DNA of 64,000 nt from assembly GCF_057098645.1 (NCBI RefSeq), contig NZ_CM169472.1; one strand, written 5' to 3'. The position numbers are program-made. Below, piece after piece: positions 18,001 to 27,000 of this stretch. Numbering within the stretch: the stretch's first letter is position 1; each line of letters starts with the position of its first letter.

Positions 18001-21000
18001 ATGAAATGATTAATTATAATGATGGTTGGTATTATGTTCTTGCTCGTTATGATAATTGTCTGGTTTTGTCTACTTCTTTCAATGCAGGTAGTAAAAGGTT
18101 TGTCATTTATCAATCAGCACAAGATAAGAATCTTCAGGTTGATATTGTAAGGACCAGAATTTAATTGGCTGCATAAATAATATTTTAAGTTGCAAGTTGG
18201 CTATTCGTAGGAATAGAACCTTAGGCATGCTGAATGCGTTTTCTGAACATTGTTTTATAAACTGTGTCTGCTTGCTGTTGTGATCCTGCTTTTAGTGATG
18301 GTGATGATGGATTTCACCAGCAGGATAATGTTGGTACTGACTGATGGCGCTCTGGTCTGCGGCATTGTGGTATTGCTGTGGCCGATGATGAAAGAACAGA
18401 ATGAATAATTCTTGACTTTTTTGTTTACTGTTTATTAAAAAATCAACCGCATGGTGAATCCTCCTTGGAGGGGCTAAATGATCGAGTTTTAAGGGCACGT
18501 AGCGAGTTCTGTTTGATCATTGCAGAACTTAGCGGGAGGCGCCATGCGTACATCACTAGTGTTATTCCTTTTATCATTTTCCTTGTGAGTTCTGGCTGCG
18601 CATTGCGCAGCCTTTTTTTTATGACCTGCCACTGGCAGATGGTCATCCTGTGATTTGATTCCGCTTCCGGCTTTTTAACTCTGTTCCTCTACACGGGAGA
18701 AATTCGATGTCGATTAAACATTACGATGTTGTCAGGGCGGCGTCGCCGTCAGACCTTGCGGAAAAGCTGACACACAAACTGAAAGAGGGCTGGCAGCCAT
18801 ACGGCGGACCGGTTGCCATTACGCCGTACACACTGATGCAGGCGGTGGCTATTGAAGGAGAGCCACAGGTCGGCCCTTCATCTGAGCCGGATTGGTACTA
18901 CGTCATCGTACTGGCCGGGCAGTCCAATGCCATGGCTTACGGTGAAGGGCTTCCGCTGCCGGATTCATACGATGCTCCGGATCCGCGCATTAAACAGCTG
19001 GCGCGCCGCAGTACAGTGACGCCGGGCGGGGCTGCCTGCAGATATAACGATATTATTCCGGCTGACCACTGTCTGCATGATGTGCAGGATATGAGTACGC
19101 TGAATCATCCGAGGGCTGACCTGAGCAAAGGGCAGTACGGCTGTGTCGGTCAGGGTTTACATATTGCCAAAAAACTGCTCCCGTATATCCCGAATAACGC
19201 GGGGATCCTGCTGGTACCATGCTGTCGTGGTGGTTCGGCATTTACCCAGGGCGCGGAGGGGACATTCAGCGAGTCCACGGGGGCCAGTCAGGATTCGGCA
19301 CGCTGGGGGTGGGCAAGCCGTTATATCAGGATCTGATTTCCCGCACAAAAGCGGCATTGCAGAAAAATCCCAAAAACGTTCTGCTGGCCGTCTGCTGGAT
19401 GCAGGGTGAGTTTGACATGAGCGCCGCCACCCACGCACAGCAACCTGCGCTGTTTACAGCCATGCTGACACAGTTTCGTGCTGACCTCTCCGTGTTTAAC
19501 GCGCAGTGCCATGGTGGCAGTGCTGCAGATGTGCCGTGGATTTGTGGTGACACGACGTATTACTGGAAAAATACATACGCTACCCAGTACGACACCGTGT
19601 ACGGCGGGTATAAAAACAGGGAGAGTGAGGGCGTTTATTTTGTGCCCTTCATGACAGACGGTAACGGCGTCAATACCGCCACTAACGCGCCGGCAGAAGA
19701 TCCGGATATTCCGGCATCAGGATATTACGGTGCGGCATCGAGAACGAATGGAAACCAGGTATCATCAAACCGCCCGACACATTTCAGTTCATGGGCGCGC
19801 AGGAGCATTATTCCGGATCGTCTGGCAACCGCTATTCTGAACGCAGCCGGGCGCACCTCAGCCTTCATCAGTGGTAAGGCACCGGAAATCAAACCCTCGC
19901 CCGGCGGCAACACGCCATCGGGTCCGTCTGCAGATACGTCCGTTCGCACAATCTCCCTGCTGCCGGCAGCCGGAGAGGCTGCTGCGCAGGGCTGGAGCAT
20001 TAAGGATGGCGGAATTCAGTTGTCAGATGGTGTATTTAAGATCACCAAGCAGAGCAATAAAACCTGGTCCCTGACGCATCCGGTGGATGACGCAATTACC
20101 CTGCTGACACAGGGCGGCAGACTGACCTGTAAGTTCCGCCTGTCAGGCGCACTGACCAACAATCAGTTCGGGCTGGGGATTTATCTGTATACGGATGCTC
20201 CCGTTCCTGATGGTGTGGCGATGACGGGTACCGGTAATCCGTTCCTGATGTCGTACTTCACTCAGACCACTGACGGCAGAGTGAATCTGATGCATCACAG
20301 GAAAGCCGGAAACACGAAGCTGGGGGAGTTCGGCGATTACGGTAACGACTGGCAGACGCTGGAGCTGGTGTTCACCGCCGGCAGTGCCACGGTTACTCCG
20401 AAACTGAATGGAGTGGCTGGCCCGGCATTCCAGGTTATAAAAGACAGTCTGACACTGGGACTGAATGCGCTGACGCTGACGGATGTTACAAAAAATGCAG
20501 CGTATGGCGTTGAGATAGAAAGTCTGATGCTGGAGATAAATGCACCGGCAGCATAATAAAAAAAGCCAGCGACTGACCTGAAAAAGAAGACGCTGGCTAA
20601 AAGGCCTTATATGTTTGTAGAGACTTATTTTTCACAGACAGCAATGATGCCTGTCAATATATTATCAATATGCGGATTGTTTCAGTTACAGATGCCTTAT
20701 TAAGGAAAAAAACAGCCAGCTGTAGTGGTCAAGTAATATTGGCCACGGTTTTACAGTAAAAATGGTATCTGTTCTCTGACTCTTCCGGCGTCAGCCCACC
20801 GTTATAATGGTGAGGTCTGACGCTGTTGTAGTAGTTCAATATGTAATCATTAATTTGCTGCCGGGCCTCGTCCTTGCCTGCGTAACCATTCGTTGGCACC
20901 CATTCTGTTTTCAGACTGCGGAAGAAGCGTTCCATGGGGCTGTTATCCCAGCAGTTTCCCCGCCGACTGACGCTTTGATTTATTCTGCAACGCCAGAGAA

Positions 21001-24000: not shown

Positions 24001-27000
24001 TTCGGTACGCCGCCCAGGAAGGTCAGGCAACGGCTGTGGGCATTTAACCATGACATCATGTCCTGACCTTCGCACGCTTCAACGTAGGTATAGTTGGACG
24101 CCCCCATTACGGCCACGAAGATTGCCACGCGGCGTATCTCACCGGTGTCCGGATTAATAACAGGAACCGTAGGACCACAGAAGTCGATAAAAAGCTTTTC
24201 GCCGGCACGATGCTCCTGGCGCATGGAGAGACGTCGCGTTTTTTTCCACTCCCGGTAGCAACGGCAGAAGTGCGAGTATCCCATCGCTTTGTTACCCGCC
24301 TGTGCCTTGTATTCCATCCACAACAGTTGCCGCGTCACACCTGGTTTTCTCATTTCCGTATCGAAGTACAACATGTCAGGCATTACAAGCTCTGATGCAA
24401 AGGTGTCTTTGGGCGGAAAAATGAGTTTCTCCAGCGTGTCATGGGATATATCAGCAGGTAATGGCCATGACAGAGAAGAGGCTTTGAAGCGGGCAAGAAC
24501 CTCAAAAACGGTTGAGGCGCTGATGTGTAACGTCAGTCCGATACAACGGTTAGTCAGCTTCTTGTCGAACTTGAGCTGAAGGATCTTAAAACAGGTTTCC
24601 ATAGTGCTCCTGGATTTTCTCTTTCTGGACATTGACGTCTCCACTGGTTTAAACACGGCAATGGAGACTGTGGTGAAAAGAGTTAATTCCCGGAGTGACT
24701 GGCAGGATGCCAATCAATGATCGGAAGCATGCCAAATCGTGATCGATTGTGATGCCAAACTGTGATCGGAGATGGATGCCAAATCATGATCGATTCGAAT
24801 GCCAAACTGCGATCGATTCAGATGCCATTTTGCACTTCGTCTATGTGGCGTTCATCATTGATGTGTTTGCCGGATACATTGTGGGGTGGCGGGTCTCATC
24901 GTCCATGGAGACGACATTCGTGCTGGATGCACTGGAGCAGGCGTTATGGGCCCGTCGACCGTCCGGCACGGTCCATCACAGTGATAAAGGTTCTCAGTAT
25001 GTATCGCTGGCCTACACACAGCGGCTTAAGGAAGCCGGATTACTGGCATCAACAGGAAGTACAGGCGACTCGTATGACAACGCGATGGCGGAGAGCATCA
25101 ATGGTCTTTACAAAGCGGAGGTAATACACCGTAAGAGCTGGAAAAACCGTGCAGAAGTGGAACTGGCCACACTCACGTGGGTGGACTGGTATAACAATCG
25201 ACGATTGCTGGAAAGGCTGGGCCATACTCCTCCGGCAGAAGCAGAAAAAGCTTATTATGCTTCCATCGGAAACGATGATCTGGCAGCCTGAGTTCACAGA
25301 TAAAACACTCTCCAGGAAACCCGGGGCGGTTCAGCTCATCGGGACGCCGTTTTGAGTCAGCATTTCAGCCAGAGTGCGCGCGCCCGCAGAGCCCCGACTT
25401 TGGTTCCACGCCCGGCGTATTTCGCTGCACAACCTGACTCGTGCCGGATTAACCGTATCGCGTCGTTTTCGCCAGTACCGGTAACTGCTGCGGTGTATTT
25501 CCAGAGCAGAACACAGGCTGACAACCGTGTGGCTGTCACTTAGTCTGGCGGCTATCGTGAACCGTTCAGCGAGTCGGACATTAAGAGCGCGGTAGCCTTT
25601 TTTAATATCGTATTTTGTTCCTCCAGACGGCGAACTTGCTTTTCCAGCTCGCGGATACGTTGCTGGTCTGGAGTAATGGGTGTGGCAGAGGGCGTAATAC
25701 CCTGGCGCTCTCGCCTGAGCTGGCGTACCCAGCTCTCAAGCGTGGTTGAACCGACATTCATCGCTTCACTGGCCTGTCGATATGAGTAGCCCTTATCAAC
25801 AATCAGCTGTGCACATTCCAGCCTGAACTCAGGGGTGAAGGTTCGTTTGGTTTTCTTGTTCATTAAGTCACCTGTTTTGTGTTGTGGTGAGAATATCACC
25901 TTTCATCAGGTGGCCAAATTTAGTGTGCCACTACAAGCACTGACTTTCGGTGGAGAGGTGCTGGCTCAAAAGGATAGATGTACTTCACATGTTGCTTCTA
26001 TATGGCAGTACATTTTCTGACAGACAGTGACGGATGTTGTCAAGATATTGTGTCATTTATAACCTGAATCAGGGGAGGCCGGAATGTTATCTGGCATTTT
26101 TAGCAGAGCCTGAATGCCATAATCACGGCTCCCGGCGTTGGCCGTCAGTGGGTGACACTGGCGGCTTTTTTGTTTTTCTTTACTTTCATTTTCTGTCGGC
26201 GGTGACGGAGACATACATCAGATGGAAAAAATCACAACAGGTGTGTCATACACCACGTCAGCGGTGGGGACGGGATACGGGTTACTGCAGCTGCTGGACA
26301 AAGTCTCTCCGTCCCAGTGGGTGGCAATAGGTGTGCTGGGAAGTCTGCTGTTTGGCCTGCTGACGTATCTGACAAATCTTTATTTCAAGATTAAAGAAGA
26401 TAAGCGTAAGGCTGCGAGAGGTGAATAATGTCGCCGTCATTACGCAAGGCTGTTGCAGCTGCTATTGGTGGTGGGGCTGTTGCCATAGCGTCTGTGCTCA
26501 TCACTGGTCCAGGTGGTAACGATGGTCTGGAAGGTGTCAGCTACATACCATACAAAGATATCGTTGGCGTATGGACTGTATGTCACGGACACACCGGAAA
26601 AGACATCATGCCCGGTAAAACGTATACCGAAGCAGAATGCAAAGCCCTCCTGAATAAAGACCTTGCCACGGTCGCCAGACAAATTAACCCGTACATCAAA
26701 ATCGATATACCGGAAACAACGCGCGGCGCTCTTTACTCGTTCGTTTACAACGTGGGCGCTGGCAATTTCAGAACATCGACGCTTCTTCGCAAAATAAACC
26801 AGGGCGATATCAAAGGCGCATGTGATCAGCTACGGCGCTGGACATACGCTGGCGGTAAGCAATGGAAAGGGCTGATGACTCGCCGTGAGATTGAGCGTGA
26901 AGTCTGTTTGTGGGGGCAACAATGAGCAGAGTAACCGCGATTATCTACGTTCTGGTCATCTGCCTCATCGTCTGCCTTTCATGGGCTGTTAATCATTACC

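Follow-up and report, generated by a model that had tools for sequence, protein, structure and literature searches.

Three insertion sequences nested one inside another between nanS-p and the holin gene of a lambdoid prophage

That insertion sequences (ISs) come to lie one inside another is a well-known result of transposition, and the kinds of element from which the nest described here is built are known. Elements of the IS21 family duplicate 4-8 bp of their target, and ISSso4, a member of that family, has an istA-istB operon, TG...CA ends and multiple subterminal repeats. ISEc31, as represented by a copy that carries this name in the Prokaryotic Genome Annotation Pipeline (PGAP), is 1258 bp long, with TGTAGTGG...GGCCAC ends, an orfA/orfB layout and an A6G slippery site, while IS629 and IS1203 are characterized by a length of 1310 bp, TGAACCGCCCCGGG ends, an ALIL pseudoknot and a 3-bp duplication. 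IS629, of which IS1203 is an isoform, produces target duplications of 3-4 bp and shows a strong bias toward prophages, with 62% of its copies in four O157:H7 genomes located there (PMC3271280), and for Stx2a phages, insertions of IS3-family elements between Q and S have already been documented (PMC10462455). Here we analyze a stretch of 64,000 nucleotides from contig NZ_CM169472.1 of assembly GCF_057098645.1 (the window, in what follows), in which one element of each of these three kinds, with the properties just listed, occupies a single site in a prophage, the ISSso4-like element inside the IS629/IS1203-type element and the latter inside the ISEc31-like element.

Reading of the sequence from 20400 to 26300 and computation of the junctions confirm the nest base for base, with each of the three elements flanked by an intact target duplication. 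The outer element, of the IS3 family, occupies 20721-25935 on the minus strand (5215 bp with its inserts, 1258 bp when reconstructed); its TGTAGTGG...GGCCAC ends are inverted, and AGC flanks it on the left (20718-20720) and on the right (25936-25938). Inside it, at 21380-25333 on the plus strand, lies the IS629/IS1203-type element (3954 bp with its insert, 1310 bp reconstructed), which bears TGAACCGCCCCGGG in inverted orientation at both sides and is bordered by GCT (21377-21379 and 25334-25336). The innermost element, an intact ISSso4-like member of the IS21 family, extends over 22196-24834 on the minus strand (2639 bp, with TG...CA ends of the form TGCG...TGCA) between two copies of CTTCG (22191-22195 and 24835-24839).

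Read from left to right, the nest begins with the 3' part of the outer element (20721-21379, minus strand), which holds the C-terminal portion of orfB and one terminal inverted repeat and corresponds at 100% identity to nt 1-659 of the reconstruction. This is followed by the left part of the IS629-type element (21380-22195, plus strand), consisting of an inverted repeat, orfA, the ALIL pseudoknot and the N-terminal portion of orfB, and, beyond the inner element, by its right part (24835-25333, plus strand), which contains the second CTTCG, the C-terminal portion of orfB and the right inverted repeat. The 5' part of the outer element (25334-25935, minus strand) completes the nest with the second GCT, the N-terminal portion of orfB, the slippery site, orfA and a terminal inverted repeat. 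Taking out each insert together with one copy of its repeat leaves elements of 1310 bp and 1258 bp. When aligned back onto the window by BLAST, the three reconstructed elements tile 20721-25935 completely, with no leftover base, and the two split reading frames, outer orfB and IS629 orfB, are both continuous again after removal of the inserts. The three pairs of boundaries, the three direct repeats, the arithmetic and the rejoined frames that an earlier note on this DNA had reported therefore all hold. The combined chance prior for flanking repeats of 3, 3 and 5 bp is about 2e-7, and the nest is far beyond chance because the reconstructed outer and IS629-type elements match intact copies and because an empty site exists.

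We consider it very probable that this structure arose through three successive, independent transpositions into a lambdoid prophage without stx, within its late region. In a first step, the 1258-bp outer element would have entered a site 164 bp past the nanS-p stop and 286 bp before the holin start, with duplication of AGC; in a second, the 1310-bp IS629-type element would have inserted into the outer orfB, duplicating GCT and destroying the outer transposase; and in a third, the 2639-bp IS21-family element would have inserted into the IS629 orfB, duplicating CTTCG and destroying the IS629 transposase. The junctions demonstrate the second and third insertions as events, and relatives demonstrate that the outer insertion was the first, but we infer the place of the second step relative to the third. 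Members of both IS families probably transpose by way of a circular copy (copy-out-paste-in) that leaves the donor where it is, and insertion into an inert IS would bring no further cost to the host, so that nests could accumulate.

Such a structure might also be produced on the computer, by misjoining separate IS copies during assembly. Assemblers are notoriously misled by ISs, the nest occurs in this sequence alone, and a 1-bp homopolymer difference in nanS-p, described below, could be a sequencing error. However, mis-joins arise in shared repeats, whereas each junction here connects unrelated sequences and carries a perfect duplication of the length typical of the family; furthermore, removal of the inserts restores sequences that are 100% and 99.9% identical to intact elements, and the outer junctions are seen independently in other genomes. 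An assembly artefact is thus extremely improbable.

The history of the site before the later insertions is preserved in relatives. In a set of 5,426 complete E. coli genomes, which is the main genome set of this study, we searched with an empty-site query composed of 3.5 kb from each side, from which the nest and one AGC had been removed. At least 80% of this query is covered in 232 genomes, often in a single piece at about 99.5% identity, as in O103:H2, O121, O145, O45:H2 and O111 strains. At the base level, the empty site of the O103:H2 strain CEC12044 reads ...AACAGCCAGCACTGAC..., with a single AGC, and the 1-bp length difference found in empty-site alignments stems from the G run of nanS-p and not from the junction. 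The outer element alone, in exactly this place and with the same AGC duplication, is found in C325, Z1323HEC0422 and the O145:H28 strain 16003, where all 1258 bp agree with our reconstruction (100% identity), and the match pattern of Z1323HEC0399 and many other O145 strains is like that of these outer-only genomes. The outer-only genomes are also the closest relatives of the window over 24 kb (99.7%). Outer-only copies at the identical site prove the boundaries of the outer element and show that its insertion preceded the others and was inherited from a common ancestor; they also establish that what remains once the inner 3957 bp are excised is an authentic element. [quoted passage not shown] The locus consequently provides a clean, reconstructible lineage marker, with the empty site, the outer element alone and the full nest as its states.

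Levels 2 and 3 are private to this genome. No genome among the 5,426 covers at least 80% of the whole nest, and the junction between IS629 and the IS21-family element was not found elsewhere in that set. An exact-protein look-up returned no record of the open reading frame (ORF) that spans this junction (21757-22278), and exact 37-38-mers of both inner junctions gave zero matches in metagenome and species-representative contigs. One apparent intermediate, in Z1323CEC0005/0006, was rejected: there the ISSso4-like element lies directly in nanS-p, without the outer element.

Two observations weigh against the account of three insertions in sequence. One is that levels 2 and 3 have no independent second observation in any collection searched. 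The other concerns the intermediate in which the outer element carries IS629 and nothing else: a query for it that included the flanks found none at the site in the 5,426 genomes, and the outer::IS629 junction had no single-piece match. The 19 matches that cover at least 80% of the intermediate query do so with the IS part only, in 3-4 pieces, and the four that we fetched comprise three cases of adjacent or separate copies and one of nesting at nt 445. Thus, of the two ancestral states that the earlier note had proposed to look for in sister genomes, the outer element alone is present in C325, Z1323HEC0422 and O145:H28 strains, but the outer element with IS629 was not found. Because this intermediate was not found, the order of steps 2 and 3 is a matter of parsimony, under which IS629 would have arrived before the IS21-family element. 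The order of events had been called unambiguous; it is so for the outer element, which the outer-only relatives place first, whereas middle before inner is the parsimonious reading. The locus is a reminder that sequence proves the order of a nest only in part.

The absence of the intermediate would also agree with a composite origin, in which the IS21-family element first entered an IS629 copy elsewhere in the genome and IS629 transposase acting in trans then transferred a copy of this 3954-bp IS629::IS21 unit, whose IS629 ends are intact, to the outer element. A possible source of such transposase exists: 10.5 kb from the nest, at 9576-10885 on the minus strand, the window contains a second, intact IS629-type element with 97.5% identity to the nested copy (33 differences). 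In excision assays, an IS1203v/IS629 that is disabled and holds foreign cargo between its ends responds when OrfAB is provided by a different plasmid. On the other hand, the IS629|IS21 junction occurs nowhere else in the complete genomes, in the exact-protein look-up or in the metagenome and species-representative contigs, no second copy of the unit is present within the 64-kb window, and the scenario needs one assumption more than insertion in situ. We therefore regard a composite origin as very improbable and retain three insertions, each made in place.

The second IS629-type copy is itself without a target duplication, being flanked by AAG and ACC, a mismatch that points to a deletion next to it or to some rearrangement after its insertion. 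Recombination between this copy and the nested one was considered and rejected, since the flanks AAG/ACC are not swapped with GCT/GCT.

After three insertions in place, only the inner element can be autonomous, as had been proposed, for its IstA and IstB are intact and both outer shells have a split orfB. The two shells nonetheless keep both of their ends, and transposase from an intact copy elsewhere could in principle act on them, so that they may still be mobilizable in trans.

The identity of each element can be established from its reconstructed form. In the outer element, orfA (25552-25863, minus strand, 103 aa) is accompanied by the A6G slippery site (A AAA AAG; 25597-25603, minus strand), and orfB lies in the -1 frame, such that a -1 shift at the slippery site yields a single OrfAB frame of 392 aa. 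The reconstructed OrfAB scores 360.6 bits on the IS3-family model NF033516 (cut-off 160) and contains the Pfam domains HTH_Tnp_1 and rve; the model score, the phases of orfA and orfB, the slippery site, the inverted repeats and the 3-bp duplication all place the element in the IS3 family. Among the records of the complete E. coli set, 918 have a copy at 99% identity or higher as their best match to it.

The earlier description of the outer element as IS911-like is correct at the level of the family but not of identity. The terminal repeats of IS911 appear to be similar to those of the outer element, and IS911 likewise has an A6G frameshift site; the two have the IS3 family and the 3-bp duplication in common. 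The outer element is a relative, and its identification as IS911 was rejected because its nucleotide identity to PGAP-named IS911 copies is too low, at about 64-66%. With the PGAP-named ISEc31 copy in DETEC-S586, on the other hand, the comparison gives 92.8% identity in nucleotides and 95.7% in OrfAB amino acids, and the isoform rule of ISfinder asks for at least 90% nucleotide or 95% amino acid identity to the reference element. On these comparisons ISEc31-like is the better label, and the protein of the outer element itself, WP_085968792.1, has in PGAP just the generic name 'IS3 family transposase'. The outer copy here is disabled by the IS629 insertion.

The Rfam model RF01387, 'isrC Hfq binding RNA', has a full-length match of 150 bits at 25745-25867 on the minus strand, which falls on the outer orfA with its leader, over the first ~120 nt. 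What the model represents is apparently an ISEc31-like transposase gene at its 5' end. Annotation pipelines will accordingly report at this locus split transposase pseudogenes and an 'isrC' small RNA that would really be the 5'-terminal part of a gene for an IS transposase.

The middle element is recognized as IS629/IS1203 by its 1310 bp, its ends, its 3-bp duplication and its orfA/orfB arrangement with a frameshift pseudoknot. Its orfA (21434-21760, plus strand) encodes 108 aa, the ALIL frameshift pseudoknot lies at 21715-21831 on the plus strand (RF01497, 120 bits), and the repaired orfB encodes 296 aa and scores 315.7 bits on NF033516. The reconstructed element reaches 99.85-99.92% identity with intact copies from O145:H28 and other strains; unlike these, the copy here is broken after nt 816 by the IS21-family element.

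In the inner element, istB (22295-23050, minus strand) encodes an IstB of 251 aa and istA (23067-24602, minus strand) an IstA of 511 aa. IstA scores 284.7 bits on NF033546 (cut-off 160) and differs from WP_023181050.1 by one substitution, L80F. IstB scores 257.8 bits on NF038214 (cut-off 200) and 205.7 bits on the Pfam model IstB_IS21, and it is identical to WP_001282653.1, which PGAP calls 'IS21-like element ISSso4 family helper ATPase IstB'; the link to ISSso4 rests on this PGAP name. The subterminal repeats that had been noticed are real, as a 16-bp motif, GATCRNNNNTTTGGCAT, is present in five copies at 24707-24814, at the istA end, and in two inverted copies at 22215-22254. The istA-istB model matches, the TG...CA termini, the repeats near both ends, which are typical of the family, and the 5-bp duplication identify the element as a member of the IS21 family, and other copies of it are flanked by duplications of 5 bp and 7 bp. 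Full-length copies exist in 225 of the 5,426 genomes, one of which, in strain 3R, is 100% identical to the copy in the nest.

Similar nests elsewhere raise the question of whether these elements seek each other out. The same IS21-family element has independently entered IS629-type copies at other positions: in SLK172 it follows nt 968 and has a 7-bp duplication, in Z1323CEC0005 it follows nt 786 and has a 5-bp duplication, and a plasmid copy abuts nt 41 of an IS629-type element. At a locus other than that of the window, in ECO2947, an independent insertion of an IS629-type element splits the outer IS type at nt 445; in Z1323CEC0005 the IS629 of this parallel nest is the one broken after nt 786 by the IS21-family element, so that the trio of ISs recurs in the same order, with the far part of the outer element lost. 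The parallel nest was read at NZ_CP148474.1 2501-6899 and NZ_CP046259.1 1501-4071. A preference of the IS21-family element or of IS629 for insertion into other ISs could account for such independent cases and for the recurrence of the trio. Yet they amount to about 3-4 independent cases among 299 records with a full-length inner element, most other co-occurrences are simply copies that lie near each other, one plasmid has the reverse order, and the duplicated sequences CTTCG, CTGAT and ATAAAGG have no motif in common. Moreover, insertions into IS DNA escape purifying selection, and this alone would lead to their enrichment. Targeted nesting is in our view unlikely, and very unlikely is the stronger claim that the recurrent trio and the several IS21-in-IS629 cases reveal a target preference for resident IS DNA as a 'safe haven' for insertion. 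We read the recurrence of nesting as neutral accumulation, beside which a real target preference has a small probability.

When five further loci at which these elements co-occur were fetched, four proved to contain neighbouring copies only and one was nested in reverse order, and on these five loci a hierarchical targeting of IS into IS was rejected. In the reverse nest, on plasmid pPEC422_4 (NZ_JBXSET010000005.1, 801-4705), IS1203 lies in the istA gene of an ISSso4-like element that is itself inserted in an IS66-family tnpC. The nests of Z1323CEC0005 and pPEC422_4 occupy other positions or loci and some are partly deleted, whereas the nest in the window is complete and has all three duplications intact. 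It is an ordinary, strain-specific by-product of transposition, both the phenomenon and all three elements being already known, and it has little importance beyond this strain.

The effect of the nest on the prophage depends on late transcription. A candidate late promoter (TTGCAA-17-TATACT, 17220-17248, plus strand), a consensus match only, is found directly after the Q gene, and a terminator-like hairpin with a T run, likewise a consensus match only, follows at 17282-17303 on the plus strand. The nest lengthens by 5.2 kb the distance from this candidate promoter to every late gene. The earlier statement that it separates the lysis cassette from the late promoter is accurate in that the nest lies between them; however, the whole late operon, with the terminase, head and tail genes, is downstream of it as well. 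Much of the IS DNA was said to be antisense, and this is so for about 75% of the length of the nest, the outer and inner elements being on the minus strand and IS629 on the plus strand relative to the late operon.

From these facts one may imagine a functional lock, in which the mostly antisense nest blocks late transcription so that neither lysis nor particles result. The position of the nest ahead of all late genes speaks for such a lock, as do several weak terminator-like hairpins on the plus strand inside the nest, and additional IS insertions in the O145:H28 prophage (ISEc20 and IS629) suggest a prophage in decay. In lambdoid phages, however, RNA polymerase modified by Q is resistant to terminators and would read through them, and a scan of the whole 9.5 kb finds 15 terminator-like matches against 9.5 ± 3.1 expected from shuffled sequences, those inside the nest being weak. 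The lysis genes, too, are open. Because Q-modified polymerase is resistant to terminators, a block of late transcription would be a hypothesis and not a consequence of distance, and for the same reason, with only weak matches inside the nest, read-through is to be expected. We infer that Q-antiterminated transcription most probably still crosses the nest, perhaps less efficiently, and a lock is possible but doubtful. If the nest does lower late transcription, it would represent one more case of IS-driven prophage decay in STEC.

The genes on either side agree with the proposed location of the nest between nanS-p and the holin gene, where relatives annotate a SASA-family carbohydrate esterase and a class II holin. 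The gene order in these relatives is Q, a hypothetical gene, a DUF3927 gene, nanS-p, holin, lysozyme, Rz, Rha and terminase, and their annotation shows no stx between Q and nanS-p. In the window, nanS-p (the SASA-family esterase gene) lies upstream of the nest at 18707-20556 on the plus strand. Near 19305 one base is missing from a G run (G5, compared with G6 in C325), and this 1-bp deletion splits the gene into the overlapping ORFs 18707-19336 and 19219-20556, either as a real pseudogene or as a homopolymer sequencing error. Downstream, the genes for holin S (26222-26428), lysozyme R (26428-26925) and Rz (26910-27359), all on the plus strand, are open.

The region from Q to the lysis genes is often struck by ISs in relatives. 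WL1467 has IS629 in nanS-p, and Z1323CEC0005 has an ISSso4-like element in the same gene; O145:H28 strains carry ISEc20 in nanS-p and IS629 in the lysozyme gene of this prophage; and ISEc23 or IS1 is likewise present somewhere in the Q-to-terminase region searched in relatives. In the same prophage family, Z1323CEC0005 also has IS100 in ninB.

The outer element sits within an 8-bp inverted repeat, GCCAGCAC...GTGCTGGC, which is separated by a 17-nt spacer in the empty site (20714-20720 together with 25936-25961) and may form a hairpin in the intergenic region between nanS-p and the holin gene. Finally, codon 20 of holin S differs from that of the relatives' protein WP_000411802.1 by the substitution W20G, the window encoding GYGLL where the relatives have GYWLL.

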